A DNA stretch of 47,456 nucleotides from an uncultured Candidatus Saccharibacteria bacterium (GTDB lineage: Bacteria; Patescibacteriota; Minisyncoccia; Phycocordibacterales; PALSA-1337), in NCBI GenBank assembly GCA_964412585.1, contig CAYPPJ010000007.1:1-47456 (forward strand), in the 5' to 3' direction. Both the position numbers and the translations under genes were made by a program. Positions 2,396 to 39,222 of the stretch are shown in pieces. A model generated the notes under the pieces. That model worked only from the letters and a program-made list of their open reading frames with translations. It made no database searches and had not been told where the DNA came from. Positions within the stretch are counted from its first letter, which is position 1; each line of letters starts with the position of its first letter.

Positions 2396-2859
2396 AAAAT
2401 GATTCTAGCATTGTTGAGAGGCAATAACTTAAATCACAACAGCAAAAAGTACCAAAAAATCTGGGGATAAATAATTAGGATACAGATTCATCAATGAGGC
2501 AAATCTTTAATTAATATTGAGAATTTTAGAAGAGTAGGATAGGAGTTAAATATGGGTTAGCTCAGGACTTGGAAGCGAAGGAAATGCTAATTTTACCACA
2601 AATTTATCGTAACGATTTTACTTGGTGTAATGAAATCTTGTTATACATAGATTGTAGTGTTTATTAATGTTTATGTAGGTATGCCTAAGGAGATTTTTCG
2701 CGAGTTCTGCGGTGCTGAATGCTGGGTACTGCCGCACTGGAGCCACCTAGTACTTTCGTTGTGATGAACCTAGCTGTCATAGTGATCTTGAATGCGAGCC
2801 AAATATTCCTTGGCCTAAAACTGGTGCTTTAAGCATCCTGGAAGGCTATAATTTTAGGG

Positions 2860-5800
2860 ATGAGCAACCAGGGTACAACTCAACAAAATCTAGCTTCCCA
2901 AGGTACGGTCTTGGAGTTCATTCCGATTAACCGAGCATCCGAGATAACCAAGTACAGAAAGGATTATATTGGACAGCTGTGTCGTGCCGGCAAATTGGTT
3001 ACCCGACGAAATGGTCGTCAGTGGCTGGTTGAAAAGTCATCGATTTTGGCTCACAAAAAAGCTGCCGATGAGTTTTATAATTTGGCACCACAAACAGCGC
3101 AGGTAGTTACACCTGTTCTGCCTGTAGTAGAGACACCTGTCACTCCGCCCCCAATCCCTTGGACCTTCACCTATGATGAGGATACACGTCCGCTATTGCC
3201 AGTATTGAAACCCAAGGCATTCGCCACAACGGCAATTCCTGAAAAACAAAAGTCTGAGGTGGTCCATTCAGTACAGGCCGCAAAAAAACGGGGAGTTGCT
3301 GCAACATCAAAGCCTTCGACATTATTTACACATCATCTTCAAACGGCTGTTATTGTGACGACATTGATCTGTGTCGTTTCATTGGCTGGCGCAGTATCTC
3401 TTGGTCAGCATGGTGCGAAAGTCGCTTTTGAAAAAAGTTCGAACATGTTTAGTGCGGGTCAGGAAAGTGGACAGACAGCCTCATTGTTTGACTGGATATC
3501 TGCGCGAAAGAAATCAGCAGTTGTTGTCATTCGTGAATTTTTGGGCATAGAGGATCAACAGCCACAGGTCGTTGTCGTCACAGCTACCAGTACACCTGTT
3601 ATAGTCAATCAAGCTAAACCTGTAGCGGTCACACAGCCGCCACGTACGAACTACGTCTATTCATCCGATCCATCGTTGGCGGATCGTATCGATAGGGTGC
3701 AACAGAATCTTGATGAGTTTAAAAAATTTCAACAGTTACAGACGTATACTATTTACGAAAATGTGAGTAATGGCTTATCGTCGGTCGGAGGGGGTTCATC
3801 GAGTAATTTTACTGGTTCAAATCTAAACGGTGTTACTATTACTGGCTCATCATTTTCGGGCACGACCGGAGTATTTTCTTCTAGTGTGAGTGTGGGAGGC
3901 GCCCTCTCTGTTACCGGATCAACAACGTTGGCCGATCTCACTGTGGGGTCTTTGGAGGGTCCGCTCCAGGCGATCGGTGGCGTGGTCTCAGCTACATCAA
4001 CACTTTCCTCGGTGTATGGTGGTACTGGTCATAGTAGCTACGCTGAGGGTGATGTACTCTATGGCAATTCAAACGGCGACCTTTCTACGTTGGCGCGCTC
4101 CTCAAATGGGCTAGTCCTCAAACTGGTTGGTGGTGTGCCATCATGGCAGGCTGACCTTATGGGAAGTGGTGGTGGTTCGTCAGCGTGGGCGACATCAAGC
4201 GACAACTTGCTTGTGTATCCAAGTGATTCGATGGATGTAGTTGTTATTGGATCGAACGCGACGACTTCTTCGGGGAATATATTTGAAGTGGTGGGTAGTA
4301 CGAAGTTAGGAGGAGTGAATGATGTGGCAACAATTTCGAAACTCTTGGTTAGCGGTTCTTCAACATTGCAGAGACTGACATTCACCCAGGCTACAGGCAC
4401 GTCAGCTACAACAACAAATTTGTTTGCAACACACGCCTCATCAACCGATTTGCATGCGACCGCCGCGGCATTCGGTACTCTTTCGGTCGGGTCACTTACT
4501 GGTCTCTTGCAATCAGCGAACGGCCTCGTCTCTGCTTCCTCAACACTTTCCATTGCATATGGCGGAACAGGTACTTCGACAAAACCTTCGTATGGTCAGG
4601 TACTTCTCGGTCAGGCTGATGGGACATACACATTGATTGCAACGAGCTCACTTGGTTTTCCAACGCCGCAAGATCTCTCCCCGTACCTCACCTCAGCAAA
4701 CGCGGCTACCACCTATCTCAATCTTACCAACTGGTATGCCACCACCACCGATGGTCTTGATGAAGGGGTAGTCAATCTCTACTACACCGACCCTCGAGTC
4801 CAGACATACCTCAATTCGGTTGCAAAAGGATTCTTCTTCTCAACGACCTCAGCAGCTTACTGGGATTCAACACAGTCACGTTGGGCGACAACCAGTACCG
4901 ATTACTGGAAGAGTCAGAACAATTTCTTTTCTACCACGTCAGTCGCATACTGGGACTCGACTCAATCACGTTGGGCGACGACATCAAGTGATTACTACGT
5001 AAATGCCTCGACGACTATTCCAAAGACGTATACCAACAATACGTTTACGGGCGCTAATACATTCAATGGCGGCCTCACCGTCGGTTCTCTCACTGGCCCA
5101 TTGCAGGCATTGAATGGTGCTGTCTCCGCCTCTTCAACACTGTCGATTGCATATGGCGGTACAGGTACTTCAACACTTCCAACATATGGAAAATTGTTGG
5201 TGGGAAATACACGCGGTGGATATGACTATGTCGCCACATCCACACTTGGACTTCTTCAATTGTCTGATCTTGTCGCGTATCTCACAAGTGCAAATGCCGC
5301 TTCAACATATTTGAGTTTGGCAAACTGGTACTCGACAACCACCGACCAACTTGCTGAAGGCTCGACACATCTCTACTACACCGACCCCCGAGTCCAGACA
5401 TACCTCAACTCGGTTGCAAAAGGGTTCTTCTTCTCAACAACTTCAGCAGCTTACTGGGACTCGACTCAATCACGTTGGGCGACGACATCAAGTGATTACT
5501 ACGTAAATGCCTCGACGACTATTCCAAAGACGTATACCAACAATACGTTTACGGGCGCTAATACATTCACCGGACTACAGACCTTTGGTAACAACATCTC
5601 TTTTGGCGGTGCTCAATTGAACGCGAGTGCGTTGACATACGGCAACCTCCTCATGTTTAACGGAACCAACTGGGTAAATACATCGACATCGTCACTCGGT
5701 ATTACAGGTGGATCATCATTCGGGTATCTCTTCCCGGGGAATGCGACGTCAACACTGCTCGCATTTAATGGAGGCCTTACTTCGTATGCAACATCGACTA

Positions 5801-8800: not shown

Positions 8801-11800
8801 TCAAACTGGCAACCGGCTTGAATGGTCCTCTCCAGGCAGTCGCTGGCCTCGTCTCTGCTTCTTCAACTCTGTCTACAGTATATGGAGGTACTGGTCTTCC
8901 AACAAAGCCAGCATATGGTCAGATTCTCTTGGGCCAGGCTGATGGTTCGTACGCTCTCACGGCAACTTCATCACTCGGTATTACTGGTGGTGTGTCAGCT
9001 TTCACGTCACTCACCGATACCTTTGCATCGTATGCAGGGAAGTCGGGACAGCTTGTTGCGGTTAACTATGGAGAAACGGGCCTAACGACTTTTGCCACAT
9101 CTTCACTTGGACTTGTTAGCTCCCAATGGACAACTTCAGGGTCAACTATTTCATATAACACCGGAAATGTAGGCATTGGCTCTTCTACTCCATTTGCTAC
9201 GTTATCTATTGTCGGAAACGTAAATCAGGCTGCAACACCATATTTTGCAATTGCGTCTTCATCAACCATTGCACCATTCTTGCAAGTAGCATCTTCCTCA
9301 AACTTCCAGGTTGATGGCGGTGTATTGGAACCAATGCACCGTGGTAGGCTTGGTAACTCGGCCGGAGGATCAGTAATGGCCAACCCTAACTCAGTTTTTG
9401 TCTCTGGTAACTATGCCTATATTGCGGTGTATAGTTCAAATGCACTTGAAATAGTTGATATTTCAACCTCGACCCCAGTGCATAAAGGGAAACTCGTTCA
9501 CGGTACTGGTGGTGCACTTTTGACCAACCCGCGCTCAGTCTTTGTCTCGGGTAATTATGCCTATGTGGCAGTTGGTGGCAGTAACGCGCTCGAAATCATT
9601 GACGTATCAAATCCTGCAAACCCAGTTCACAAAGGATCGATTACTAACGGAACGGGTGGTGCCGCTTTGTCTACACCTTACCAAGTGTATGTCTCAGGTA
9701 ATTATGCGTATGTCGCGTCAAATGGTAGCAATGCTCTCGAAATCATTGATATATCAAATCCCGCGAATCCAGTTCACAAAGGAAAGCTTACCCATAATAC
9801 AGGGGGTGCCTCATTGAGTGCTCCATACCATGTGTACGTAGTCGGAAATAATGCATATGTCGCCGCGAGTGGTGCCCTCGAAATTGTCGATGTCACAAAT
9901 CCTGCGGCACCTGTTCATCGCAGTAAACTTACTGATGGTACGGGTGGCGCATCACTGACCAATCCTCAGTCAGTCTTCGTCTCGGGTAATCATGCATATG
10001 TTGCCGATTTTAGTGGCGCACTTGAAATCGTGGATATTTCGAATCCTTATGCACCAGTTCATCGAGGCAAACTTACTAATGGCACAGGTGGTGCGTCACT
10101 GGTCGGTCCGCGTTCAGTCTTTGTCTCAGGAAACTATGCATACATTGCTGATGGCTCAGGTGACGCACTTGAAATTGTGGATGTTAGCAATCCATTGAAC
10201 CCAGTTCACAAAGGTAAAATAGTAGATGCGCAGGGCGGCTCAGCGCTCGACAACCCAGCATCTGTTTTCGTCTCTGGTAACTATGCATATGTGGCAGCAT
10301 CGGCAAGTTATGCATTTGAAGTAGTTGATGTGGGAGCCGTAAATATTTCGAACGCGCAGATCGGAACACTCAAAGTCGGCAACTTCTCCGTAGATAACTT
10401 TGCTCAGTTCAACAACAATTTGTTTGTAAAAAATAATTTGAATGTAGGAGGAAGTACGTTGATAGATGGAACCTTAGTAGTTACGGGATCGACGGGTACC
10501 ACAACAGCATCAACAGCAACAACATCGGCACTATTTATGGGCAATATTCTTGTTGGGACACCATCGACTGGTTCCACCACTCCATATTCACGTCTCTCGG
10601 TATATGGGGCAGGTACGGGAACTGGCCAGATTTTTGAGCTTACAGACAATGCGTCAAATACCATTGCTCGATTCCTTGATAATGGGACAGGATATTTTGC
10701 GGGCAATATTGGTTTTGGCACCACTTCGCCATATGCAAAACTCTCGGTCGAAGGATTTTCTGTTCTCGGTAACTCCGCATTAGCAGGTTACTTCACTGCA
10801 ACCACCACCACAGCATCAGTATTTCCATACGCTTCAACCACAATGGTCAGCGCAACCACAGCATCAACCACCAACCTCATCATCTCAGGTCTCCCAAGCT
10901 GTAGCTCAACAAGTGCTCTTACGACAAACTCAAGTGGTGTCGTAGCTTGTGGACCAATATCGGGTGGGTCAGCATTCTCGTGGACTCCAGGAACAAACTA
11001 CGGAGTTGCTGTTAACTCAACTTCAACCCCAATCTGGTTCCAGAATGGTCTCATGGCTTCAAGCACAGCCTACCTAACCTATGCAACCACCACCGCTCTC
11101 ACTGTCACAGGTAACGCATACTTCCCAGGAAACGGTATCTGGAATTCGAGTGGATTCCTTGGTATCGGAACAACTTCGCCATATGCCGCACTCTCGGTCG
11201 TCGGCGCATCTGGTGTTGTTGCAGACAAATACTTTGCGACATCGACGACGGCTACGAGTACGTTTGCGGGAGGGTTGAACGTTGGCTCGGGGAATCTCTT
11301 GTATGATCTTTCAACCGGCGTTACTTCCGCATCCGCATTCCAGACAGGAAACCTCAACTTTGATACTGATGCAGGTATGGTCTCATGGGCAGATCTTCCA
11401 CTATCAAGTGCATCGAACGGAACCATCGAAGGGTATAGTGCTTCTTTGAATGGTAGTACTACGATCAGTGTCTATGGCGTCTCAGCAGGATCTGGCTGGT
11501 TGCAAAATGATTATCCGCGTGTCGCAATCGGCAGTACTACTGCGCCGAGTTCAAAATTGACAGTCTTTGGTAATGGCACAGGAGCCAACGGACTCTTCGA
11601 ATTAGTCGACAACGCTTCTACGACTCGTTTCAAGGTGCTTGATAACGGAAAAGTTGGTATCGGTACCACATCTCCGTACGCAACTCTTTCTGTTCAGAAC
11701 AATTACGCGAGCGGTAATACTACGCTCTTCGCCGTCGCTTCATCAACTGCCGCAAACGCAAGTACCGCAAGCAATCTCTTCAATATCTCAAATACCGGTG

Positions 11801-12921: not shown

Positions 12922-12937
12922 CACACATACTATATAT

Positions 12938-15235
12938 ATGACATTCACACCTAAAAAAATACTTATAGCCCTCGGACTTCTCAGTGTATTTGTCGTTGGA
13001 GGCATCCATGGAGTGCGCGCGGCAACTATCAGTAGTACTGTTCCCGGGTCCGTAACTTCAGGTCTTGTCGGCTGGTGGACTATGGATGGTACAGATATGC
13101 TCAATGGAGCAGCCTTGGATAAGAGTGGAAATGGGAATTCTGCGGCACTGGTGAATATTGCGACATCTACTTTCTACAGGGCAGGCAAGATTGGACAAGC
13201 GTTCAATTTTGATGGTGTGAATGATTATCTACTTGTACCAAGTTCTTCCTCTCTTCCTGCTGAACAGCCGATGAGTATTTCAGTCTGGGTTAAGCCTGAT
13301 AATGCCACAGCCGGTTTCGTGCTCGCCTCGCGCCCTTTCTCGGGAAATGGATGGAATATTACGTATGCGTTTGGTAATAGACTCATGTTTCAACATGATG
13401 GCGTTGGAGATTTATCTGCTCGAACAACTTTTAACTTCGGTGCGTTTTCTACTACTCAATGGACACACCTCGTTGTAACATGGGATGGAACTACAGATGC
13501 AACCCATGTTCTCATCTATAAAAATGGCGTCATCCAGGCGCATGATACAGATACAAATGGTTCCAGCATGACGAGTACGAGTGGCCAGCCGCTCTATATT
13601 ACCTCTGACCAAGGTGGTGGCGGTTTTTTCAAAGGATCTATGGATGATTTTCGAATGTATGACCGCGTTCTCTCCACCACAGAAATTAGTCAGATTTACG
13701 CGGCGGGCTTGGCTACTGGCAAGCAGGCTGCTTCACCCCAAGTAACCGGAACTACTTCCTGCTCAACGGGACTATCGTGTGGCCTCGTCGGGTACTGGAC
13801 ATTTGATGGCAAGGATACTCCATGGACATCTGCAACAGCTGCCACTACCCTCGACAAGTCGGGAAGTGGTAACACGGGGACGTTGACCAGTATGAATCAG
13901 TCGAAAGCTCCTGTACAAGGAAAGATTGGCCAAGGACTGAAGTTCGATGGAGTGGACGATACGGTGAGTATTGCTCACAACGCGAGCATCAAACCAACAG
14001 CCGCAATCTCGATTAATTTTTGGTTCAATCCAAGCAATGTAAATTCGTCCGCAGTCCAGACGATTTTGTCCACTACTCAAAGCGGAGGTTATTCGGTGGC
14101 ACTTAATGGAACTTCTGCTTCCGGTACATGCAATGCAAACTCCTTTTGTTTTTTTGTGAATGTTGGCGGTACGTATTATATTACCAATTATGCAAAATCA
14201 AATTTTAAAAATAATACGTGGTATTTATTCACGGGGACATATGATGGAAATACGAATAGGATGTACATAAATGGACAACAGATAGATACTGTTTCCCAAT
14301 CTGGAACAATCAATTATACAAGTAATACGCCAGTATGTTTGGCCTCGGAGCCAAATGCGTCTGCCTGTATAGATGGAAATTACTTCAACGGCTTGATGGA
14401 TGATGTCCGCGTCTACAATCGCGCTCTTTCTGCTGTTGAAGTTAGACAACTTTACAACTTGGGTGCTACTTCCAAGCAGGCTGTTTCACCAGTAGTAACA
14501 TCAACCTCGTGTTCATACGGTCTCTCGTGTGGTCTTCTCGGGTACTGGACCTTCGATGGGAAGGATGTCAATTGGTCAACAGGATTAGCAAGTGACAAGT
14601 CGGGAAATCTCAACACTGGATCGATGCTCAATATGTCGACGACAAGTAGTCCGATACCTGGAAAATCAGGTCAAGGACTGAAGTTTGATGGTGCTAATGA
14701 CGCCATAAATGCAGGGTCAACTTCTTCGTTGACCGATATTCAGAACCAAGGTGGGGGAGGTATGACGGTTGCATTTTGGATAAATCCGGATTCAAATTCG
14801 ACGAAATATATACTTGCAAAAGGAGGTGCAAATAATGGCAGTGGAACATGGTCGATACTCAAGGCCTCAAACACAAATCCCGCACGTCTATCCTTCAATA
14901 AAGAAGGGGGTACAGATGCGTCAAAAAATTATAATAGCTTACTTGTCTCCGGTGTATGGCAGCATATTGTTTTAACATGGGATGGCACGATGGCGGTCAG
15001 TACCGGTGTTCTGGTCTACCGAAATGGTGTTTTGGTATCAAACGTGACAGGGACCGATGGTGCGAGCGCAAATTCTGATTCGGGCAATGCTTTGTGCATG
15101 GGCAATCTTTCTACTATTGGTTCAGCAAATTGTGCTACCTCTGGTTCTGCAGATATGAAGCTCGACGACGTGATGATTTATAACAGAGTATTGAGTGCAG
15201 CTGAGGTTCGTCAATTGTATAATAGAAGCAAATAA
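12938..15235 (+). CDS. Secreted protein with three LamG (concanavalin A-like jelly-roll) domains
   Basis: Signal peptide. Three units GL[VL]G[WY]WT[MF]DG...DKSGNGN...GKIGQ...FDG.[DN]D...W.H.V.TWDG...MDD[FV]R[MV]YNR.LS..E[IV].QLY. Confidence 0.9.
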   Translation: MTFTPKKILIALGLLSVFVVGGIHGVRAATISSTVPGSVTSGLVGWWTMDGTDMLNGAALDKSGNGNSAALVNIATSTFYRAGKIGQAFNFDGVNDYLLVPSSSSLPAEQPMSISVWVKPDNATAGFVLASRPFSGNGWNITYAFGNRLMFQHDGVGDLSARTTFNFGAFSTTQWTHLVVTWDGTTDATHVLIYKNGVIQAHDTDTNGSSMTSTSGQPLYITSDQGGGGFFKGSMDDFRMYDRVLSTTEISQIYAAGLATGKQAASPQVTGTTSCSTGLSCGLVGYWTFDGKDTPWTSATAATTLDKSGSGNTGTLTSMNQSKAPVQGKIGQGLKFDGVDDTVSIAHNASIKPTAAISINFWFNPSNVNSSAVQTILSTTQSGGYSVALNGTSASGTCNANSFCFFVNVGGTYYITNYAKSNFKNNTWYLFTGTYDGNTNRMYINGQQIDTVSQSGTINYTSNTPVCLASEPNASACIDGNYFNGLMDDVRVYNRALSAVEVRQLYNLGATSKQAVSPVVTSTSCSYGLSCGLLGYWTFDGKDVNWSTGLASDKSGNLNTGSMLNMSTTSSPIPGKSGQGLKFDGANDAINAGSTSSLTDIQNQGGGGMTVAFWINPDSNSTKYILAKGGANNGSGTWSILKASNTNPARLSFNKEGGTDASKNYNSLLVSGVWQHIVLTWDGTMAVSTGVLVYRNGVLVSNVTGTDGASANSDSGNALCMGNLSTIGSANCATSGSADMKLDDVMIYNRVLSAAEVRQLYNRSK

Positions 15236-15240
15236 TTTTT

Positions 15241-18200
15241 ATGAAGCAGCATCACCTTAAAACTTCATATGTATATGCCTTGGCGGCGATAGTAGTAATT
15301 GGGCTTGTCGTCAATATACCACATATCATTCAGACGCCTCGTGAAGTTTTGGAAACTGTCGCAACGCACTCTTCGGCAGTCCATCAAACCGCAGCCGTTG
15401 CGGACTTCAACTCAAATCTCGTTCTTCAGTATTCATTCGATGATGGTGCCGCTGCCGATCTATCTGGTCGCGGAAACACAGGTATTGTAGCCGGTGGCGC
15501 AGTATCGAATGTCGGACAGATAGGCAGCGCTCTCGTGTTTGATGGTATCGATGACACGATCAATGCCGGGTCGGCGGCTTCACTCGATGATATTGGGTCA
15601 CAGGGAGGTATGACCGTGTCATTCTGGATCAACCCACGTTCAAACGCACTTGGGTATCTGTTTGCGAAAGGATCAGCGTCGAATAATAGTGGCACATGGT
15701 CAATTCTTAAAAGTTCTGCCACAAGTCCCGCACGCATATCGTTTGGCAAAGAAGGTGCAGCTGATATGAATGCTAATTTTAATAGTGTTCTGGTTGATAA
15801 TGTCTGGCAACACATTGTTCTTACGTGGGATGGAAACATGAGCAGTGGTGTAAATCTGTATAGAAACGGGGTCGCTATGTCAGGTGGAGTTACTGTTGCT
15901 GGTAGTGGAGCGAATAGTGATGCAGCCCACAATCTCATGATCGGTTCGCTCAACGGCACCTCTGGGTTTGCCGATGTCTCCATGGATGACGTACGCGTGT
16001 ATAACCGAGTGCTTACTTCTGCAGAAATAGGGGAGCTTTATTCGTTGGGAGGAAGTGTGGTGTCGCCACCGTCGCCAATCAATGGGTTATGTGGAAGTTC
16101 AGTCAACGCCTGTTCAGCGGGAACTCTTTCGGATTCGACTGACACCGCGACAGAAAACGTGTGGAGCTGTATTGGGTCCATTGGAGGAACCACTGCTTCA
16201 TGCTCGGCTCCGATTTTGTCCCAAGCCACCTCATATAACCTGACTGTTTCCAAGAATGGCACCGGGGCTGGCACGGTTACTGGTTCTGGTATTTCTTGCG
16301 GGACTGATTGTTCGGAATCTGTCGGATCAGGTACGGTTATTACACTCTCGGCCACCGCATCGTCCGGCTCCACATTTACTGGGTGGAGCGGTGGAGGATG
16401 TTCAGGAACTTCTTCGTGTTCCGTAACCATTTCTTCAAATACGGCCGTGACGGCAACATTTAATACGCAAAGCGTAGCGCCAGATCCGGGGCAGCAACCT
16501 TCTCCAGCGGGCAACCGTGTGGATCTGCTGAATAGTTCAGGGGGAGTTGCGAATACGTTCGCGACAATCCAGGCATGTGCCAGTGTGGCACAATCAGGCC
16601 AAACCTGCGCTGTCTACCCAGGAACATACAATGAACGTGTAAATGTGTCGAATTCCGGAACGTCTGCAAGTCCGATCACATTTAGGGCCGCGTCTGCGAC
16701 AAAACCTGTTGTGCGCGCTTTCAGTCTTTCAAACAAAAGTTATATAACTATTGATGGCTTCGAGTTAACACATCGCGCAATGACTCATGAAAGTACGTTA
16801 AATGCCTATGCGAGTGCCTACGTGAGTGGTGGTACCGGTGTTCGTATTACTAACAATTTTATCCACGATACAGACGGTCCGTGCACTAGTTTTGAAAATC
16901 TTTCTTTCCTTACTATTAGCGGCAACACCTTGGACCATTGCGGGGTGGCCACCACAATTATTGGAGTACCGACGGGTGGAACATTCACGATAACTGCTGG
17001 TGTAAATGATACAGTCAAAATTCGTCTTAACAATGCAACGTCATACAATGTCACCCTCACTTCGGGCACGCGCACGTTGCAACAGGTGTGCGCAGATATT
17101 AATAGTCAGGCAAGCGGAGTATATTGTCATGCCGAAGGTGCTGACAAACAGGTTCATATAAATCCAATTACGGTTGGTCCATCAACGTCAGTTATTTTAG
17201 AAAATGTCGCTCACGATGCATATGCGGCGTTGGGACTTGGTGTCGGAAACGAAACCCAGATATCACATACGGCCGCATTTCAATCCGCGAGCGGCGCGGG
17301 ATCAACTGATGTCCTGGTAGAAAATAACCGCGTTTCTCGTGTCAGCGACTTCCTGCTTCCAAAAGGGTCCAGATATGTCTATCGCAATAATATATTAGGT
17401 CCGTCTGATATTGGTACGGCCATCCATATTGATGGCGTACAAAGCAATGCCCCCGAAAACTTCCTTCTTATTGAAAACAATCTATCAACTAATAATTCGA
17501 GCTCAGATAACCATTTCTTTTTGACGTCTGCATATTCAGCCAACTGGATTGTTCGATACAACAGATCGTTCCAAAGCAAAGGGGGGCAGGCGTGGGGGTG
17601 CGGGCCGTGCGGTACCATGGGCAGCTTTTCGCATTACAATAATACGTGGTACGACACTGTCTCGTATTATTTTGGCTGGAATCAGCTCGGATTGACCGCA
17701 TCACCCAACAGTCTTTCCCGTAATAATATCTGGTATCGTGCCGTTCGTAATCCTGGCGGCAATCCATACTATAGTGGCGCGGGGACGGTTTTGGACAAAG
17801 ATTACGACGTGGTCTTCGAATCCGGCAACGCGCAAGAAGTTCATGCGATAACAACTGACCCACTTTTCGTGAATATGTCGTCAGGGGACTTTGCGCTTCA
17901 ATCCTCATCTCCAGCAATTGACCATGGGGGACCATTAACGACCACTGTTACGGCTGGTACCAATTCAACTTCACTCCAGGTCACCAACGCAGGCCCATTC
18001 CAAGATGGTTGGGCAGGAGTCGGTCATGATTGGATCGCTGTGGGCACATCAGGTAATTACAGCGAAATAGGTTCTATTAACTATGCGAATAACACAATCA
18101 CGTTGCGCACACCGTTGTCGTGGTCCGCGGGTGCTCCAGTGTATTTGTTCAAAGATTCGACCGGACGACAAGTGCTCTATGGTCCAGCACCCGATATAGG

Positions 18201-21200
18201 TGCGTATGAGTATGGAGGAGGAGCGCTGGTACTGCCGCCTGCAAATCCAATTCTTCCATCGAACCCACCAGTTCTTCCGGCAAATCCAGTAACATGTACT
18301 TCATTTACGTATTCTGCATGGGGAACATGCACGTCGGGGTCACAAACTAGAAACATTCTTACGAGCAGTCCAAGCGGATGTACGGGAGGAGTTCCTGTTA
18401 CCAGTCAAAGTTGCACGGTTACTCCAATCGTACCACCACCACCTGTACCAGCAATCAATGCTTCATGCTCGAATACACTAAATCAGTGCATTGCCGGAAA
18501 TTACACTGATCTTCCAGATACATCCGCAAATCACGAGTGGTCATGTCTTGGTTCAGGTACAGGGATTAATGTGTCTTGTTCGTTAGCAAAGACGGTAGCA
18601 CCAGCGAATGTAACGGTGCCAGTAGTTCCAAATCAGCCGCCTGTTACATCGCCGAATAGATCAGATTTAACCCCATCACCTCAACCACCAACGGCACCGC
18701 AACGGGTTGTCCAAAAAGTCATTCAGACTACAATAACCCCAAACAAATCACCCTATCGTTCGATTAGCGATGCGGATCTTGATTCTGCAACTTCAACAAA
18801 GCAGTCTATTTCTGATTCTGAACAGCCGCGTTCTCGCAGTTCATTTTTTGAACGAGTTAAGGAGATGTTTCGGTATGTTTATTCACGAATATTGAATGGT
18901 GTAGATCGTCTATTTGGAAATGCTGGCAGAACTCAAACCGCCGCTGTTGCTGACTTCAATTCAAGCCTCGTAGCTCACTACACCTTTGATGATGGAACAG
19001 CGACCGATTCTTCCGGAAAAGGGAATAATGGTTCTTTTGTCGGTTCGCCAACAGCAGCCACTGGTATCATCGGAGGTGCGCTCCAGTTCAATGGTTCAGG
19101 TGACGGAGTCAATGCACCGATTCCGGTTAGTTCTAACGGGATGACCGTCTCAATGTGGGTGAAGACTACGAGCACAAGTCTCCAGACACTCTTCACGCGA
19201 GGTGGGGCGGGTAGTGGATATGCCTTTGATTATCGTTTTGGCAATAGACTCAATTTTGAGCACAATGGCTCAACTGATCTCGCAGCGCGTACAAAATCTT
19301 CAAGTACCCTCACTCCAGGAACATGGTATCATGTCGTGTTTACGTGGGATGGATCAACATCCGCAAGTCACGTTGTATTCTATAACAACGGAGTATCGTT
19401 GCCCCATGATATCGAAAGTGACGGAGTGGCTCTAAGTGATACGGCAGGCTTCACTCCAGTCATTGGCTCTAGTTTTAATGGTGTTATCGACGACGTTCGC
19501 ATCTATAACCGAGCTCTTTCAGCTCAAGAAGTCACCGATCTCTATACTGCTGGCGGAGGATCAGTGCCAGCCTCGCCGCCCGCAGCACCTGCAGGTCAAA
19601 ATAATACTCCTGCGAATACGTCGCCAAACAACACACCAGCAAATCAACCAGCTAACGATACCCCTGCACAGAATGCGGCACCGGCGCAGGCAAATGCCGC
19701 TACCTGTAACACTTCTGACATTCAAACCGCGGTTAATACGGTTGCCGACGGGGGAGTCGTGCTCGTTCCTGCGGGAACCTGCACCTGGACCTCTCCGGTA
19801 ACGATTACGAATAAGTCGATAATACTCAAAGGTGCGGGAATTGATCAGACAATTATTACAGAAAATCTTGCGGTAAGTGATAGTTCGCTCCATATCAATA
19901 GCGCTCTTGGTAGGCCTGTTCGGGTAACAGGATTTACCTTCGAAGGAAGAAATACTCGTGACAATTATGCTTCGATTGGCATCTCTGGTCCGCCCAATCA
20001 ACCGTTGTTCCGTGTTGATCACATCAAGTTCAACAACGTCACAGAACGAGGCATTATCGCCAATGGCGTATACGGTCTCATCGATCATAATATTTTTATA
20101 AGAAATCCGACAGAAGGTTCGCCGACGCTTGTCTCGGTGATGGGTGACTCTGATGCTTCGTGGAATCGACCGCAAGACATGGGTACGTCAAACGCGGTAT
20201 TTATAGAGGATAATATTTTTGTCCATAATATAAATGCCAATGGCCCGTTCGATATGTATCGAGGCGCACGCTATGTGTTTCGAAATAATAATGTGTATGG
20301 TAACAATTTGGGCCATCATGGCTTCGATAGTGATCTTCGTGGAGAAGTAAATTTTGAAGTTTATAATAATTGCTTCGTGAATGCAGCACCCGCAGAGCGT
20401 ACGCCGTACGTTCTCCATCCCTATAGCGATTGTTCGGTCCATCCACTTCCTGCCACAACTCCTTATGCCCACGGTGTTGTCTTCGAATTCCGTTCAGGAT
20501 CGGGGGTGATCTTTAATAATACGGTGACTCGAGTCCCGACAGGGAATAATGGAGGCTATTATGATTACTTTACGCTACTCAGAAACTATCGCAGTGGAGA
20601 CGGGTATATTACCAACAATGGAGGCGTCTTTCCGTGGGATGGACATAGCCCGTGGAACGGCTCGTGCAATGGGACAAATCCGCTCGATGGTAATCTACTC
20701 GACCTCGATACCAATGGTGATGGTGTTGCTGACAAGAGTTCGGGCTATCCATGCAAGGATCAAATTGGTCGTACATCGGGTGTTGGTGCAGACGGAAAAC
20801 AGACCCTGTCTCCCGTGTATTCATGGAATAATAATTTTCAAGGAGCCGTGGGAGGACATATCGTGACGGGTGGTTACGCAACATTCCAATGTCCAAAAGT
20901 TGGCAGTACTTTTGTCTCAAAGGTTGATAAGCCCGCTCCTGGCGCTCCATATACGTGGGTGTGCAAAAATAATGCATCGGGCGTGGATTATACATTGTCT
21001 GATCTGGTCAACTACCACATCAAAGAAGGCCGCGATTATTTTAATGGAGTTGCTCGTCCTGGATATTCTCCGTATGTATATCCTCACCCGCTTACCGTCA
21101 GTGGATTTTTATCGGATGCAGGCGGTCCGGTAATCACGGTGCCGGTAGGGAATGCTGCTCCTTCTGTGGCGGTGCCCGTAACGCCTCCGACTATCGCTCC

Positions 21201-24200
21201 CGCTACTCCGGTTGTGCCCCCAGCGACGCCTGTGGTGACACCTCCAGTAACTCCACCTGTTACTCCAAATCCAATCGTTCCAAACCAACCTCCTGTCACG
21301 CCGCCAATTTCTCCTACTGTACAAAATACTATTCCACCAGTTCAGGTGACAACGAATACTCCGAACGTGGTAACTCGTACTCCGACAGTAGTGAGGAATG
21401 GTAATGTAAATACCGTAAAAAAGTCACCATACCGTTCGTTAAGCGATGCTGATATTGATACTGCAACGTCGTCTACCCAAGAGACCACATCTACTCCTGA
21501 GACTTCATTCTTTGGACGGATAAAAGAAATATTCCACTACGTTTACTCTCGCATCCTCAATGGTGTCGATCGTATATTTGGCTACGTAGGAACTACTCAA
21601 ACTGCAGCTGTTGCAGATTTCGATTCAAATCTCGTTGCCTACTATTCCTTTGATGATGGCACAGCTACAGACAATTCAGGCCATGGAAATGGGGGGACCA
21701 TCACCGGAGCCACGCCCGTCGCGGGAAAAGTTGGGGGAGCATTATCATTCTCGACGGGAAGTTCAGTATCAATCGGTAAAAAACTTTTTACTTCATATCC
21801 AGCCACTCTGTGCGCGTGGGTCAAAGTGGAATTGAAAGGGAATGGTCAGTCGTCAAAAATTATTGGTAATAGCGGACTTGATCTAGTTGCGCTCGAAAGT
21901 GATGGTCAGGAAAGATTTGTTGTATACAACGGATTAAAAGATATTTTTACACCGTATTCGAGTAGATATTCAGCCGGAGAGTGGCATCATGTGTGTGGTA
22001 TGGCCGATGCGGGGGCCCAGGTGAATATATACGTCGACGGTGTGCTCGCGGTTGGTCCGTCAACTATTGGTATTGCAAGCACATACTGGAATGCGGTTGT
22101 GGGCAGTAATTTTTCAGGAATTATAGATGAGGTGCGCGTTTATAATTCGACGTTGAGCGCAAGTCAAGTTGCTGATGTCTATAATTTTTCTGGCGGCGGA
22201 AGTTCGAGTGGTACAGGAAGTGGTACTGGCACAGGAACTGGAACAGGTACAGGCACGGGAACAGACGCCGGGACTGGTACCGGAACAGGGGCGGGAAATC
22301 CACCGGCTGCCCCTGTAGTTGCAGGATCATGTTCCGCAACACTCAATACATGTATGGTGGGCACGTTCGCGGATGTGGCTGATACATCAACTGAGCAGAA
22401 GTGGTCCTGCGTCGGTTCGGGCGGAGGCACGACTGCATCATGTTCGATTCCGGTACCCGTTGTGATACCTGATCCCGTTATTCCAACGCCAGATCCGCTC
22501 CCAAATCAGCCGATTTCAAGCGAGCTCATCCCATCTGATCGTCTCTATGATTGGGCAAATAACGTAGGGGTCATGGGAGGTATTCCTGTTGGTCGTTCGG
22601 TCTGTGCGAGCGTCAAAGATGCGCCGTACAATGCGGTGGGCGATGGTGTTGCTGATGACACGTTGGCAATCGTTGCAGCCATTCGCGCTTGCGCGGGCAA
22701 AAGTCAGGCGGTCTATTTTCCTGCGGGGACGTACAAGTTTACCGATAAAATAATTGATCAGGGCACGGGTAGAACATCAGCCAACTTTACCTACAGCAAT
22801 ACTACATTCCGCGGAGCGGGAATGGGTAAAACGATATTGAAGCTCAACACAAACAATCCTATTTATGTAGGTAACGGAGATTGGCCACCACCAGAACCAA
22901 CAGTGTATGTAACAGGTGGAGCGATGCGTGGCAGCTACTCACTCACCGTTGATGATGCAAGCAGTATTGCAGTAGGAAAACTCATCACCATCACACAACT
23001 CAATCCGGATTGGGTTCATTCGAATAGTCGATTCTACGGAGGAGGCCCTGTCGACGATGGACACGAGAAGAATCGTCTCATGGCTATTACCGTGCTCGTA
23101 AAAAGTAAGTCGGGCAGCACGATTACTATCGACCATCCATTGCCGATAGACATGCCAAACTCACCGATGATCACGGTGTGGACCAATATCGTGAAGGGAA
23201 CAGGATTTGAGGATATGACACTCGATATGTCATCAAGTGGTGCGCAGTCAGGCATCTTGTTCAATCAAGTATATGGGTGCTGGGTGAAGGGTGTTGAAAT
23301 AAAAAAAGCAGTCAATCGTTTCTTATGGTTTACCACAGTCTCGAATTGTGAAGTGCGCGATTCATATTTCCATGATGCTACCGTTACCAAAAAAGAAGGT
23401 GTGGATTTTTATCAAAATGACACCTTCAATCTGATTGAAAATAATATTTTGGTGCGCGCGGGTGGTCCGATGATTATTCTCGGTGACTTTGGCGGAGGAG
23501 TTTCTATGAATGTAGTCGCCTACAATTATCTTGAGGATCAGGAAGGCTGGAGCGATGTGGTGCCGTATGCACTTTCTGACAACCACGGTGCGCACAATAT
23601 GTTCAATCTGTTTGAAGGTAACGTTGCACAAAATATTTCTTCAGACGGCTACTATGGCGGCGCGTCGCATGAGACATTGTTCCGCAATAGATTTACCAGT
23701 GTCTATGGCAAAGCTCCCAATCGCAATTATGATTATCTGTGGCAGTACGCTATTCACTTGGGTCACTGGGCCGTTAATTACAATGTAGTAGGTAATGTGC
23801 TGGGCTCACCTGGTTATGCGTCGGTGTATCAACCATCAACGCTCAATTATGCAGGCGAGATCAAGGCAATTTACCGTCTGGGTTTTCCAGATTGTTGTAA
23901 CTCGGGCTTTTCAGGTACCGGTTCAAATCCAACAAATAGTTTGACCTTCGATACAAATGTTGAGGCAACATTGATTCGTCATGGAAATTTTGACTACCTG
24001 AGCAACACCACAAAATGGAGTCCGAACATTTCCGTCCGCTCACTGCCAGCATCATTGTATCTGCGCGGTCAGCCATCATGGTGGAATACGTGGGGGGCAA
24101 CAGCATTCCCACCGATAGGTCCTGATGTATCTGGGTATGCGCAAGAGCTCCCAGCTAAGCTACGTTATCGTGCGATACAGCGGGGAAATGACGTTGCACC

Positions 24201-24894
24201 TCCAGTAAATCAGCCAGCCCATCAACCTTTGATATGCAGTACGTTTACCTACTCCGCATGGGGAACATGCACGGCTGGCACGCAATCGCGCTCAGTTCTG
24301 ACCAGTGGTCCTTTTGCATGTACAGGTGGTCAGCCGGTCACTTCGCAAAGTTGTACGGATGTGCCAGTGGTTCCACCGGTCAATGCACGCTGCTCAACAG
24401 TGGTCGACCGATGTTCCACTGGCATCTATACGGACATGAATGATTCAACGTTACTTACCATATGGTCATGTCGTGGTTCCAACGGCGGGGAAAGTGTCTC
24501 ATGTTCATTGCCAAAGGTAGATCCTACAATTGACGTAGCCCCCGCAAACCTTCCCGCACCTCAGGTGATTCAAAAGCCATTGGTAGTGACTCCGCCATTG
24601 TTGGCGCCTGTTGCTGAGAGGATTATTTCTAACATAAGCCAGACGGAGCAAGGTATATCAACACGTCTGAGTTCGTACGGTCAAAATACTGTCCAGGCGC
24701 TCAGGAATAAATCCCCGTATCGACTTATTACTGATAGTGATTTGGCGACATCGTCAGAATCTGACGATGCCTCAGCGCTCAACGTATCGCAATGGAAAGG
24801 GGCGATGACCTTCTCTGAGCGAGTATCCGAGGTTTTGAGCTATATTGTTCAACGTATTTTAAATGGAGTGGCCAAGGTAAAGGGTTATTTCTAG
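15241..24894 (+). CDS. Giant (3217 aa) surface protein of three tandem modules (LamG + right-handed beta-helix, polysaccharide lyase/hydrolase-like + Cys-rich and Pro-rich linkers + amphipathic tail)
   Basis: N-terminal TM; three LamG units; AVYPGTYNE...DPLFVN...PDIGAYEY; DIQTAVNTVADGGVVLVPAGTC; AVGDGVADDTLAI...VYFPAGTY (Pectate_lyase_3-like); InlB-B/Flg_new-like unit YNLTVSKNGTGAGTV...FTGWSGGGCSG. Confidence 0.88.
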   Translation: MKQHHLKTSYVYALAAIVVIGLVVNIPHIIQTPREVLETVATHSSAVHQTAAVADFNSNLVLQYSFDDGAAADLSGRGNTGIVAGGAVSNVGQIGSALVFDGIDDTINAGSAASLDDIGSQGGMTVSFWINPRSNALGYLFAKGSASNNSGTWSILKSSATSPARISFGKEGAADMNANFNSVLVDNVWQHIVLTWDGNMSSGVNLYRNGVAMSGGVTVAGSGANSDAAHNLMIGSLNGTSGFADVSMDDVRVYNRVLTSAEIGELYSLGGSVVSPPSPINGLCGSSVNACSAGTLSDSTDTATENVWSCIGSIGGTTASCSAPILSQATSYNLTVSKNGTGAGTVTGSGISCGTDCSESVGSGTVITLSATASSGSTFTGWSGGGCSGTSSCSVTISSNTAVTATFNTQSVAPDPGQQPSPAGNRVDLLNSSGGVANTFATIQACASVAQSGQTCAVYPGTYNERVNVSNSGTSASPITFRAASATKPVVRAFSLSNKSYITIDGFELTHRAMTHESTLNAYASAYVSGGTGVRITNNFIHDTDGPCTSFENLSFLTISGNTLDHCGVATTIIGVPTGGTFTITAGVNDTVKIRLNNATSYNVTLTSGTRTLQQVCADINSQASGVYCHAEGADKQVHINPITVGPSTSVILENVAHDAYAALGLGVGNETQISHTAAFQSASGAGSTDVLVENNRVSRVSDFLLPKGSRYVYRNNILGPSDIGTAIHIDGVQSNAPENFLLIENNLSTNNSSSDNHFFLTSAYSANWIVRYNRSFQSKGGQAWGCGPCGTMGSFSHYNNTWYDTVSYYFGWNQLGLTASPNSLSRNNIWYRAVRNPGGNPYYSGAGTVLDKDYDVVFESGNAQEVHAITTDPLFVNMSSGDFALQSSSPAIDHGGPLTTTVTAGTNSTSLQVTNAGPFQDGWAGVGHDWIAVGTSGNYSEIGSINYANNTITLRTPLSWSAGAPVYLFKDSTGRQVLYGPAPDIGAYEYGGGALVLPPANPILPSNPPVLPANPVTCTSFTYSAWGTCTSGSQTRNILTSSPSGCTGGVPVTSQSCTVTPIVPPPPVPAINASCSNTLNQCIAGNYTDLPDTSANHEWSCLGSGTGINVSCSLAKTVAPANVTVPVVPNQPPVTSPNRSDLTPSPQPPTAPQRVVQKVIQTTITPNKSPYRSISDADLDSATSTKQSISDSEQPRSRSSFFERVKEMFRYVYSRILNGVDRLFGNAGRTQTAAVADFNSSLVAHYTFDDGTATDSSGKGNNGSFVGSPTAATGIIGGALQFNGSGDGVNAPIPVSSNGMTVSMWVKTTSTSLQTLFTRGGAGSGYAFDYRFGNRLNFEHNGSTDLAARTKSSSTLTPGTWYHVVFTWDGSTSASHVVFYNNGVSLPHDIESDGVALSDTAGFTPVIGSSFNGVIDDVRIYNRALSAQEVTDLYTAGGGSVPASPPAAPAGQNNTPANTSPNNTPANQPANDTPAQNAAPAQANAATCNTSDIQTAVNTVADGGVVLVPAGTCTWTSPVTITNKSIILKGAGIDQTIITENLAVSDSSLHINSALGRPVRVTGFTFEGRNTRDNYASIGISGPPNQPLFRVDHIKFNNVTERGIIANGVYGLIDHNIFIRNPTEGSPTLVSVMGDSDASWNRPQDMGTSNAVFIEDNIFVHNINANGPFDMYRGARYVFRNNNVYGNNLGHHGFDSDLRGEVNFEVYNNCFVNAAPAERTPYVLHPYSDCSVHPLPATTPYAHGVVFEFRSGSGVIFNNTVTRVPTGNNGGYYDYFTLLRNYRSGDGYITNNGGVFPWDGHSPWNGSCNGTNPLDGNLLDLDTNGDGVADKSSGYPCKDQIGRTSGVGADGKQTLSPVYSWNNNFQGAVGGHIVTGGYATFQCPKVGSTFVSKVDKPAPGAPYTWVCKNNASGVDYTLSDLVNYHIKEGRDYFNGVARPGYSPYVYPHPLTVSGFLSDAGGPVITVPVGNAAPSVAVPVTPPTIAPATPVVPPATPVVTPPVTPPVTPNPIVPNQPPVTPPISPTVQNTIPPVQVTTNTPNVVTRTPTVVRNGNVNTVKKSPYRSLSDADIDTATSSTQETTSTPETSFFGRIKEIFHYVYSRILNGVDRIFGYVGTTQTAAVADFDSNLVAYYSFDDGTATDNSGHGNGGTITGATPVAGKVGGALSFSTGSSVSIGKKLFTSYPATLCAWVKVELKGNGQSSKIIGNSGLDLVALESDGQERFVVYNGLKDIFTPYSSRYSAGEWHHVCGMADAGAQVNIYVDGVLAVGPSTIGIASTYWNAVVGSNFSGIIDEVRVYNSTLSASQVADVYNFSGGGSSSGTGSGTGTGTGTGTGTGTDAGTGTGTGAGNPPAAPVVAGSCSATLNTCMVGTFADVADTSTEQKWSCVGSGGGTTASCSIPVPVVIPDPVIPTPDPLPNQPISSELIPSDRLYDWANNVGVMGGIPVGRSVCASVKDAPYNAVGDGVADDTLAIVAAIRACAGKSQAVYFPAGTYKFTDKIIDQGTGRTSANFTYSNTTFRGAGMGKTILKLNTNNPIYVGNGDWPPPEPTVYVTGGAMRGSYSLTVDDASSIAVGKLITITQLNPDWVHSNSRFYGGGPVDDGHEKNRLMAITVLVKSKSGSTITIDHPLPIDMPNSPMITVWTNIVKGTGFEDMTLDMSSSGAQSGILFNQVYGCWVKGVEIKKAVNRFLWFTTVSNCEVRDSYFHDATVTKKEGVDFYQNDTFNLIENNILVRAGGPMIILGDFGGGVSMNVVAYNYLEDQEGWSDVVPYALSDNHGAHNMFNLFEGNVAQNISSDGYYGGASHETLFRNRFTSVYGKAPNRNYDYLWQYAIHLGHWAVNYNVVGNVLGSPGYASVYQPSTLNYAGEIKAIYRLGFPDCCNSGFSGTGSNPTNSLTFDTNVEATLIRHGNFDYLSNTTKWSPNISVRSLPASLYLRGQPSWWNTWGATAFPPIGPDVSGYAQELPAKLRYRAIQRGNDVAPPVNQPAHQPLICSTFTYSAWGTCTAGTQSRSVLTSGPFACTGGQPVTSQSCTDVPVVPPVNARCSTVVDRCSTGIYTDMNDSTLLTIWSCRGSNGGESVSCSLPKVDPTIDVAPANLPAPQVIQKPLVVTPPLLAPVAERIISNISQTEQGISTRLSSYGQNTVQALRNKSPYRLITDSDLATSSESDDASALNVSQWKGAMTFSERVSEVLSYIVQRILNGVAKVKGYF

Positions 24895-24978
24895 GCGTAT
24901 ACTGCCAATTGAAGGCTCATACTATATATGAGATAATGGGATTGTCGTACGTACTATTATTTATCACGTTTTACTCAC

Positions 24979-25998: not shown

Positions 25999-26007
25999 TC
26001 ATTACAT

Positions 26008-26859: not shown

Positions 26860-26861
26860 TC

Positions 26862-27617: not shown

Positions 27618-27646
27618 GTGTATACTACCCGCACCTCCACTATTGT

Positions 27647-28810: not shown

Positions 28811-28889
28811 TGTTGGGGGCGGCATCTGAGTGCACACTGCTCCGAACTCTCTTCACAGTCCCGCCGGATTGAATGTAAGTTGGTCGCTT

Positions 28890-38529: not shown

Positions 38530-38636
38530 GAGGATCTTGATAAATCAACAAATTGCCTCCCGGCATTTGTATAAATATTTTGTCAGGAAGGACATCTGGG
38601 CTATTGCTTTTTTAACTTTCATGATATAATTACGTG

Positions 38637-39070: not shown

Positions 39071-39222
39071 CATTGGTAATTATAACCCATGAGTTCACTA
39101 TCCTATATTTTTTCTGTGTATAACGCAAGTCAGCTTCCATCCAAGGGAGTTTTTACTGGGTTGTCATTTGTTAATAAAGTTGTATAGTTAAATTGCAATT
39201 AAGTAATTTTAATATAAATAAT

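Follow-up and report, generated by a model that had tools for sequence, protein, structure and literature searches.

Three very large genes that follow one another almost without a gap raise the question of what they encode and whether their products act as one apparatus. They occupy positions 2,860 to 24,894 of contig CAYPPJ010000007.1 (assembly GCA_964412585.1, from an uncultured Candidatus Saccharibacteria bacterium), the 47,456 nucleotides of which are called the window below. A preliminary description, made from the letters alone, had proposed a single operon for a fibre, a lectin with laminin G (LamG) domains and a tri-enzyme, tied together by shared sorting-like motifs. We find that the fibre gene and the triple-LamG gene directly behind it are a co-conserved pair, and that enzyme genes such as the third are variable accessories. 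We assign a probability of roughly 0.6 to the reading that the locus encodes an exported fibre, its partner lectin and a fused LamG/beta-helix unit protein of a Patescibacterium surface cluster. The three genes are:

2860-12921, plus strand: g1, open reading frame (ORF) of 3353 residues, repetitive surface fibre
12938-15235, plus strand: g2, ORF of 765 residues, secreted, signal peptide and three LamG domains
15241-24894, plus strand: g3, ORF of 3217 residues, signal anchor and three tandem LamG/beta-helix modules

The ORF calls reproduce the gaps of 16 nt (g1-g2) and 5 nt (g2-g3) described before, and the total of about 7300 codons becomes 7335. Because the same ORFs are intact in six independent wastewater-metagenome assemblies (JGI, Logan), g3 is no assembly chimera. 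A hydropathy scan finds one hydrophobic segment in each protein, always N-terminal. The earlier view of the products as exported surface proteins is borne out: they comprise a fibre, a protein of LamG domains and modules with beta-helices, and each protein has a single N-terminal signal or transmembrane (TM) segment.

Conservation of the fibre and triple-LamG gene pair

An alignment scan of 185,579 species-representative genomes with the g2 family returned 522 relatives, of which the best 79 loci were kept. Nearly all of the 522 lie in metagenome-assembled genomes (MAGs) of Patescibacteria (Candidate Phyla Radiation, CPR), in agreement with the source that the preliminary description had proposed. 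A g1-like fibre stands directly upstream of the triple-LamG gene, on the same strand, in 32 of the 54 loci that have more than 3 kb of upstream sequence, and in 16 of 39 pairs the LamG start codon lies between -4 and +30 nt from the fibre stop, as it does at the g1-g2 junction. Synteny had been named at the outset as a check on the operon, and for the fibre and triple-LamG pair its outcome is positive.

Alternatively, the three genes might be unrelated large surface genes that adjoin one another incidentally, with no functional coupling. Surface-protein genes are abundant in these genomes, and g3-like genes are missing from most fibre-LamG loci. However, the order, strand and tight spacing of the pair recur across many Patescibacteria lineages, and all three components are found together again in loci L007 and L078, so that we consider an incidental adjacency very unlikely.

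Downstream of the pair there are often tandem LamG genes, or LamG-headed genes with Beta_helix, GH5 plus CBM4_9, fn3 or PG_binding payloads. Genes of the g3 beta-helix type adjoin the pair only in L007, L014, L025 and L078, and no second triple fusion like g3 turned up among the loci and proteins recovered. L007, a 461-kb contig, combines a g1-like fibre (with the second of the two C-terminal variants set out below and a Pro tail) and a full-length g2 orthologue (36% identity) with four separate LamG-headed genes of about 1000 residues, every one of which has an anchor of its own and a PG-binding tail; three of the four are homologous to g3 in the beta-helix (module B, module A and a Pfam Beta_helix gene). 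L078 holds the closest fibre, the C-terminal tail of which is 63% identical to that of g1, followed by a pilin-LamG gene, 2xLamG and g2-like genes and three separate TM-QTAAV-LamG-beta-helix genes; the two complete beta-helix genes end in dockerin.

The pilin-LamG gene of L078 (5102-6007, between the fibre and the LamG genes) encodes a 301-residue protein in which a type IV pilin-like N-terminus, FTLIELLVVISIIGLL, is fused to LamG, and this fusion hints that pili and the LamG family are connected. LamG-headed beta-helix proteins with dockerin-like ends are encoded at 10654-13218, 14758-17148 and 17264-20116 of L078 and are also represented by proteins P0060 and P0071; one of them starts with a cohesin-like domain. 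These sequences suggest cohesin-dockerin assembly on CPR cell surfaces. The dockerin-like ends, and the tethering of several glycan-active enzymes at a surface, recall cellulosome display, whereas the tethering of g3 would be by covalent fusion, one N-terminal anchor and amphipathic helices, and no match to dockerin (PF00404) or cohesin was obtained in g1-g3.

Within g1, the following features were located:

2935-3057, plus strand: HTH_17-like cytoplasmic domain, residues 26-66 (DYIGQLCRAGK...GRQWLV)
3322-3408, plus strand: sole TM segment (signal anchor), residues 155-183, from the hydropathy scan
3472-3483, plus strand: QTAS, residues 205-208, 23 residues past the TM segment
9307-10359, plus strand: LVIVD repeats (Pfam PF08309, E 7e-56, 185.8 bits, six stretches, above the gathering score)
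12325-12411, plus strand: cationic amphipathic helix PSFLERIFNTFMEFLKSAIARIKSIFVGE, residues 3156-3184, with the top hydrophobic moment of g1 (0.63)
12412-12480, plus strand: conserved Cys element LHVEEKLCVDDVCINKDQLKALL, residues 3185-3207, from the alignment of relatives
12502-12918, plus strand: Pro/Ser/Thr-rich C-terminal tail, from the translation

The N-terminal HTH_17 match scores 21.6 bits in Pfam (E 2.7e-4), under the 27-bit cut-off, and a Pro-rich linker joins it to the TM segment. An HTH-like N-domain with a TM segment is also present in the fibres of L045, L052, L053, L062, L064 and L076, and other fibres have plain signal peptides instead. In these giant Patescibacterial fibres the HTH_17-like domain reads DYIGQLCRxGK...GRxW.V ahead of the TM segment, with two copies in L052. 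The g1 topology has a ToxR-like order, with the reservation of the sub-threshold HTH score; ToxR itself carries an OmpR-type winged helix, not HTH_17. One idea is that this domain would make the g1 fibre a ToxR-like contact sensor.

Past the TM segment, g1 is highly repetitive and predicted to be extracellular, with internal repeats of up to 100% identity that include seven YGGTG modules and eight G[IV]GTTSPxxxL motifs. The LVIVD repeats are the sole Pfam recognition above threshold in g1; seven ALE[IV][IV]D motifs at residues 2195-2485 correspond to seven such repeats, which typically form a beta-propeller. No relatives of g1 were found in PDB, PHROG or PADLOC. Peptidase_S74 (PF13884) has no match in g1 and is present in the related fibres of L011, L013, L015, L016, L029 and L078, ahead of the C-terminal region.

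The C-terminal 200 or so residues of g1 have just two word-sharing relatives among 5.8e9 proteins, and the few relatives that are named are labelled 'Patescibacteria group bacterium'. The fibre C-termini recovered via synteny nevertheless form a conserved family, in which the amphipathic helix has a conserved position and which comes in two variants. The first (g1, L013, L015, L016, L029, L053) consists of SS.SF[ILM]..I, the helix, IFV.EIHVEEKLCVDDVC[VI]NKDQLKA[LM]L and a low-complexity tail, and the Cys element of g1 is near-identical in all five other members. The second (L007, L019, L030, L065, L067, L078 and P0058) consists of S.SFI.RVA.AV, the helix, ATLAVF.RVETQTAAV..GLEMTDQ.TG..YCVTI.NG.W.K..G.C and a Pro-rich tail. 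Pro/Ser/Thr-rich tails are alike in most related fibres.

The partner protein g2 starts with a signal peptide (residues 1-28, ...GVRA/A, the slash marking the cut), and Laminin_G_3 (PF13385, cut-off 27.6) recognises three domains in it with 248 bits (E 4e-74) and three in g3 with 210 bits, so that the sharing of LamG domains between these two proteins, noted before, is confirmed. Both profile score and beta-sandwich fold place g2 and g3 in the LamG/concanavalin superfamily. An AlphaFold2 (AF2) model of g2 from a 52-sequence alignment has three confident beta-sandwiches joined by low-confidence linkers (predicted TM-score, pTM, 0.53), and its best Foldseek matches are laminin LG1-3, neurexin LNS, trans-sialidase lectin and clostridial neurotoxin Hc domains. 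Like laminin LG1-3 at the end of the laminin coiled coil (5xau, 5mc9), g2 has three consecutive LG domains, and a triple-LG unit at the end of a long fibre would be the parallel, which is an analogy only; the TM-score of the match is about 0.2, and the g2 domains are not predicted to pack. The pseudo-threefold packing of the three domains on a trimeric fibre was considered and is unsupported, given the floppy linkers of the model. The LamG domains of g2 (E 3e-35) and g3 (E 8e-22) also resemble haloarchaeal TafC (NF052521; PMC11821415); at 121.9 and 77.9 bits, against a cut-off of 410, only the LamG fold is common, and export is of the Sec type, not Tat.

Codons 5-7 of g2 form an A7 homopolymer (12953-12959), which is A7 in all six metagenome assemblies and reads A6 in a 22.7-kb contig of run X5, where it would frameshift g2. 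Either slipped-strand phase variation or an error of assembly could account for the difference.

Modules, motifs and helices of g3

Self-comparison divides g3 into modules A (residues 1-1231), B (1232-2119) and C (2120-3217). Their features are:

within 15241-24894, plus strand: signal anchor, residues 12-33, from the hydropathy scan
15385-15408, plus strand: QTAAVADF copy 1, residues 49-56, 16 residues past the TM segment
16468-18285, plus strand: module A right-handed beta-helix, ending ...DIGAYEY, from weak matches
18745-18924, plus strand: module A tail KSPYRSISDADLD...SFFERVKEMFRYVYSRILNGVDRLFG, helix at 18838-18924
18934-18957, plus strand: QTAAVADF copy 2, residue 1232, module B start, fusion joint
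19648-21195, plus strand: module B beta-helix, polysaccharide-lyase-like, from homologues, AF2 and Foldseek
21424-21588, plus strand: module B tail KSPYRSLSDADID...SFFGRIKEIFHYVYSRILNGVDRIFG, helix at 21502-21588
21598-21621, plus strand: QTAAVADF copy 3, residue 2120, module C start, fusion joint
22423-24270, plus strand: module C beta-helix, pectate-lyase/tailspike-like N-terminus (PF12708)
24709-24891, plus strand: module C tail KSPYRLITDSDL...TFSERVSEVLSYIVQRILNGVAKVKGYF, the g3 C-terminus, helix at 24805-24891

Each module runs from (T)QTAAVADF through LamG, a right-handed beta-helix of about 500-600 residues and a linker to KSPYRxIxDxDL and a 27-residue helix. Modules A and C have in addition a 4-Cys domain after LamG, and a TSP1-like domain (CTSFTYSAWGxC) with a second 4-Cys domain after the beta-helix; module A further contains Flg_new_2.

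The beta-helix of module A has weak matches to NCBIfam choice_anch_Q and to the GH120 xylosidase 3vst in PDB (E 6e-4), and is homologous to genes in L007 and L025. Module B has standalone homologues at 43-69% identity, and its AF2 model (pLDDT 75.8, pTM 0.80) is matched by Foldseek, with probability 1.0, to PL6 lyases, RbmB, GH55 and GH87, and further to a phage pectin-lyase-like protein. Closest in structure are the PL6 enzymes chondroitinase B (1dbg/7o78) and alginate lyases and, from Vibrio, RbmB (E values of 7e-6 to 1e-4), from which it differs in an identity of 10-17% and a TM-score of 0.3-0.4. No Pfam or CAZy-type family matches module B, and the polar residues R122, D146, E187, D202, R208, R212, N214 and H224 are invariant in the alignment of its family. 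Module C is recognised by PF12708 (45.3 bits, cut-off 27), matches the putative pectin lyase 7chu (E 2e-5) and PfbA in PDB, and is 33% identical to a gene in L014. PDB sequence searches with g1 and the three beta-helices gave either nothing or weak N-terminal-cap matches. Of the 'tri-enzyme' described before, the beta-helix fold therefore stands (B modelled, C by PF12708, A by weak matches), and it is from the fold level that we infer three glycan-active beta-helices; their enzymatic status goes no further than that level.

Three side observations concern the parts of g3. The TSP1-like Cys domain of about 40 residues (CTSFTYSAWGxC...QTR...C; residues 1022-1061 and 3013-3055, window ~18304-18423 and ~24277-24405) recurs widely, in tandem arrays, among unrelated environmental proteins, some with cytochrome c, and almost all matches of a 250-residue g3 junction query stem from it. 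P0064, which among full-length homologues is closest to the module B beta-helix (57-58% identity), is encoded on L008, a contig of SRR24524903, within an array of beta-helix proteins with FlgD-Ig/T9SS-like C-terminal domains from an apparently non-CPR organism, which suggests horizontal exchange of a catalytic module of this type between phyla. From 13352 to 24043, contigs of runs X2-X4 agree with the window in every position; from 24276 on they diverge from it by about 1% (24276-29829, 55 substitutions and 2 indels), which suggests a strain boundary or recombination breakpoint in the last 600 nt of g3; all of them end at 2873/2928, just within the start of g1.

The motifs were central to the preliminary description, in which QTA[AS] and an [ST]F.ER[IV] helix were shared between g1 and g3 as sorting-like signals. 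The QTA[AS] coordinates, 3472 and 15385, are correct. The g1 QTAS alone is not significant, however, because 0.30 matches are expected in shuffled g1 (probability of at least one, 0.26); the L053 fibre has TASVF at the equivalent position. The helices do start at 12328, 18841, 21505 and 24808, with 0.001 matches to [ST]F.ER[IV] expected in shuffled g1, except that the copy at 21505 reads SFFGRI and is off-motif. The two internal QTAAVADF copies, each 5-6 residues past a helix, had been missed.

In the standalone proteins P0044, P0063, P0066, P0071 and P0080 and in three L078 genes, a signal anchor is followed after 16-23 residues by [ST]Q[TR]AAV[AS]DFNSSLVAHYTFDDG and then by LamG; in one L078 gene the QTAAV segment comes after a cohesin-like domain. 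Because it follows a TM segment, a cohesin-like domain or a helix alike, QTAAVADF marks the N-terminal border of a single LamG subfamily. The pattern [TSE]Q[TR]AA[VI] occurs five times in 361,295 residues (the ORFs of the 79 related loci) against 0.13 expected, twice at enzyme N-termini and three times about 170 residues from fibre C-termini, and QTAAV is restricted to a single LamG subfamily and the C-termini of some fibres. The internal copies in g3 mark the joints of formerly separate units.

The g3 helices follow the consensus [ST]F.[EG]R[VI].E[VMI][FL].Y[VI]..RILNGV..[LIV].G over 27 residues. They are the most amphipathic segments of g3 (net charge +2, hydrophobic moment 0.61-0.63), as the g1 helix is of g1. 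Between copies A and B the proportion of differing synonymous sites is 0.78, that is saturated, and that of nonsynonymous sites 0.12, from which it follows that the peptide is under purifying selection. E. coli PBP5 and PBP6 are exported enzymes with C-terminal amphipathic-helix membrane anchors, and g3 resembles them in that a cationic amphipathic helix closes an exported module at its C-terminus, a likeness without an established sequence relationship; unlike theirs, two of the three g3 helices are internal.

A profile of KSPYR and the helix tail, run against 1.84e9 representative proteins, found g3 fragments only, and no match to the tail or motif was found in the other ORFs of the window. 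Because of this restriction, the KSPYR-helix is lineage-specific and no general sorting signal. Relatives of module B never end in it; they end in dockerin, PG_binding_1 or FlgD-Ig domains. In physico-chemistry the g1 and g3 helices are alike, but the profile of the three g3 copies does not recover the g1 helix, and a profile of the variant-2 (TQTAAV-bearing) fibre C-termini places the g1 helix at the top of the window, though at E=0.15, and misses g3. The notion of shared sorting-like motifs is thus not upheld, nor did the motif-profile survey that had been suggested for it turn up a wider family. Two further candidates were rejected. A C-terminal sorting signal (LPXTG, PEP-CTERM/exosortase, GlyGly-CTERM or the C-terminal domain of the type IX secretion system, T9SS) does not fit, as there is no C-terminal TM segment and no Pfam or NCBIfam sorting domain. 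A DNA recombination cassette of helix and QTAAV does not fit either, as codon usage is wholly different between the copies in g3 and in L078 and synonymous sites are saturated.

A different account of the same joints takes g3 to be a secreted polyprotein, cleaved at the succession of helix, 5-6 residues and TQTAA/V into three helix-ended enzymes, the motif also marking anchor removal in standalone members. The last module does end in a helix without QTAAV, as modules A and B would look after cleavage, the joint is kept at the protein level while synonymous sites are saturated, and in standalone homologues QTAAV always lies 16-23 residues past the signal anchor, with AAVADF directly after the hydrophobic region in P0066. 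T-A-A also satisfies the small-residue -3/-1 rule of signal peptidase I. Yet a distance of 16-23 residues from the TM segment is long for that enzyme, the internal helices are charged and have no true h-regions, no protease gene is found among the annotated neighbours of the locus, and the L078 gene with QTAAV after a cohesin-like domain resembles a plain domain boundary. We regard the polyprotein as unlikely. Somewhat more doubtful still is the wider proposal that helix, short spacer and TQTAA/V form a previously unrecognised Patescibacterial processing signal, which would remove anchors and cut the g3 polyprotein into three helix-ended enzymes, and of which the same hexapeptide near the C-termini of the L007, L019, L067 and L078 fibres would mark an equivalent maturation step.

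A probable surface gene cluster and its possible roles

The explanation that we favour is that these genes form a cell-surface cluster on the chromosome of a wastewater bacterium of the Patescibacteria (CPR, Paceibacteria-like). In this cluster, g1 would be held by its N-terminal TM anchor in type II orientation, with about 3100 extracellular residues projecting as a long fibre. The secreted g2 most plausibly rides on the g1 fibre as a ligand (glycan)-recognition partner; the binding is proposed because g2 is unanchored and is encoded immediately downstream of a fibre in many genomes. g3 belongs to a class of LamG-headed exoproteins built from a signal anchor, a QTAAVADF linker, LamG, a variable payload and a tether, of which separate-gene versions occur in the same clusters of relatives. 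Three such units are fused in one anchored chain, all with beta-helix payloads of polysaccharide lyase/hydrolase fold, and with KSPYR and a cationic amphipathic helix where relatives bear a dockerin or PG-binding tail. Each helix most likely docks its unit onto either the membrane surface or a partner protein. The three products would thus associate, and would bind and degrade polysaccharide on a host cell or in a matrix.

Co-transcription is part of the same explanation. The three genes lie on the same strand with short gaps and no internal terminator, no terminator-like site being found on the plus strand at the g1/g2 and g2/g3 junctions, and we propose that they are co-transcribed. Because an 84-nt gap after g3 is followed by four further tightly spaced co-directional genes, the transcription unit may exceed three genes. 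Four metatranscriptome-labelled runs contain the region, with contigs that cross both gene junctions. Their depth is flat at 40-90x over genes, intergenic DNA, the divergent upstream gene and both strands across 30 kb, and the rRNA depth is just 5-10x above the rest.

Several points weigh against this explanation. The three-part machine is no fixed unit, because g3-like genes adjoin the pair in few loci. The g2 domains are without a predicted fixed arrangement, because the linkers are of low confidence and pTM is 0.53. For module B, Foldseek TM-scores are only 0.3-0.38, and beta-helices can be adhesins, PfbA being among the module C matches. Homology between the g1 and g3 helices is unproven, because neither profile links them. 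The RNA-labelled runs are uninformative on the operon, because their coverage is flat and DNA-like. Finally, an epibiotic lifestyle is assumed from the phylum.

The identity of the glycan target separates the favoured explanation from one in which the cluster serves nutrient scavenging or matrix remodelling, binding and depolymerising polysaccharides of the wastewater biofilm, with the fibre as a general adhesin or envelope component. LamG-headed neighbours in relatives carry GH5 cellulase plus CBM4_9 or PL-like beta-helices as payloads, the locus was recovered from wastewater and riverine metagenomes, and the dockerin/cohesin modules of L078 recall cellulosome-type polysaccharide degradation; CPR are also described as dependent on complex carbon (10.1101/2025.02.25.640227). 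The sequence does not discriminate between host-envelope glycans and free extracellular polysaccharide. A giant fibre with a conserved partner lectin is, however, more typical of cell-cell recognition, and cultivated Patescibacteria are reported to be all episymbionts (PMC11623550). We hold scavenging to be the less probable role.

Whether the region might instead be a phage-derived receptor-binding module, that is a prophage or tailocin remnant with a fibre, an adhesin and depolymerase tailspikes, was weighed on its resemblance to phage fibres and tailspikes (7chu, CBA120 TSP2, Depo32). The likeness lies in the G[IV]GTTSPxxKL-type, tail-fibre-like repeats of g1, the S74 domain of many related fibres, the beta-helix payloads and a partner gene directly downstream; g2 matches PHROG virion structural families via its LamG domains only, and module C resembles phage E2 ORF18. 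In contrast to phage fibres, the locus is chromosomal and without virion genes, each of the three proteins starts with a signal or anchor, and g1 has neither a PHROG match nor S74; unlike homotrimeric tailspikes, g3 has three different beta-helices in one chain. The flanks are housekeeping (rRNA, methyltransferase, DUF218, DUF1189, FtsW/RodA, glycosyltransferases, SecDF), with no phage genes in the window, and IMG/VR holds just 26 weak g2 relatives (24-32% identity) against at least 522 in cellular genomes. A phage origin is highly improbable on this evidence. A prophage or defence identity was rejected, the PHROG matches being through LamG alone, the IMG/VR relatives weak and PADLOC matches absent.

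To our knowledge, how the ultra-small CPR/Patescibacteria recognise and hold other cells is largely unknown beyond the type IV pili of Saccharibacteria. What had been a single odd locus becomes a recurring, searchable arrangement, in which a giant fibre gene is followed by a secreted 3xLamG gene, often with LamG-headed enzymes nearby, and which offers concrete candidates for studies of adhesion and substrate specificity across many Patescibacteria lineages. It also presents the modular exoenzymes of reduced genomes as re-tethered by dockerin, by PG-binding domains or by fusion with amphipathic helices. CPR genomes are reported to be rich in concanavalin-type lectins with a presumed attachment role (10.1101/2025.02.25.640227), and giant membrane proteins are presumed to mediate attachment in Vampirococcus lugosii (PMC8080830). 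The proteins studied here are like these in coming from the same phylum-level group and in being very large, membrane-localised, rich in adhesion domains and LamG/ConA-like. Unlike them, the fibre and 3xLamG pair, the LamG-headed enzyme cassettes and the triple fusion are not described in the available portions of these two reports, which likewise name no experimentally characterised member among the related CPR giant surface proteins and lectins (PMC8080830, 10.1101/2025.02.25.640227). New are the conservation of the fibre-LamG pair, the cassette architecture with a LamG head and a fusion that carries orphan amphipathic tails, and the kind itself is known; a new mechanism is not established, and the idea of a sorting motif fails.

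Candidate initiation elements and flanking genes

Two short elements lie at gene starts:

2847-2852, plus strand: perfect TATAAT hexamer, read directly, 7 nt 5' of the g1 ATG
12926-12937, plus strand: 12-mer CATACTATATAT, abutting the g2 ATG, with a second exact copy at 24918-24929

The preliminary description had placed one promoter ahead of g1. The TATAAT hexamer is a candidate -10 box, which would imply a near-leaderless transcript; a consensus scanner found no full consensus promoter at 2847-2852, and scans of the window for consensus promoters and terminators gave chance-level matches only. CATACTATATAT has two exact copies and nine matches with up to two mismatches, against 3.2 expected. 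The exact copies flank the g2-g3 block, the second standing between g3 and the next gene, and looser copies are found just 5' of the gene starts at 33047 and 35105. Rich in A and T, the 12-mer may serve as an element of initiation or of a promoter.

The first 629 nt of the window belong to the 3' end of a 23S rRNA gene; a 5S gene follows, and a methyltransferase gene and a divergent DUF218 gene lie between the rRNA genes and g1. Relative to the bacterial large-subunit rRNA model, the 23S gene has an insertion of about 277 nt at 56-333, within which 127-329 matches the Rfam group I intron with 43.5 bits (gathering score 50, E 1.2e-9). Contigs of the RNA-labelled runs join 55/56 to 333/334, with flanks of merely 21-28 nt that may stem from the rRNA of other organisms.

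On the 3' side of g3 follow a gene of unknown function for 339 residues, DUF1189, a 251-residue protein of unknown function, FtsW/RodA, glycosyltransferases and SecD/SecF, and further downstream a pseudouridine synthase, a RhuM-like gene, two DNA methylases, an MFS transporter and a Y-family polymerase. The RhuM-like gene and the two N6/N4 DNA methylase genes (35161-35688, 37037-37906 and 42673-43395) surround a stretch at 38001-40000 with a GC content of 0.354, compared to about 0.47, and are possibly part of a restriction-modification or mobile island.

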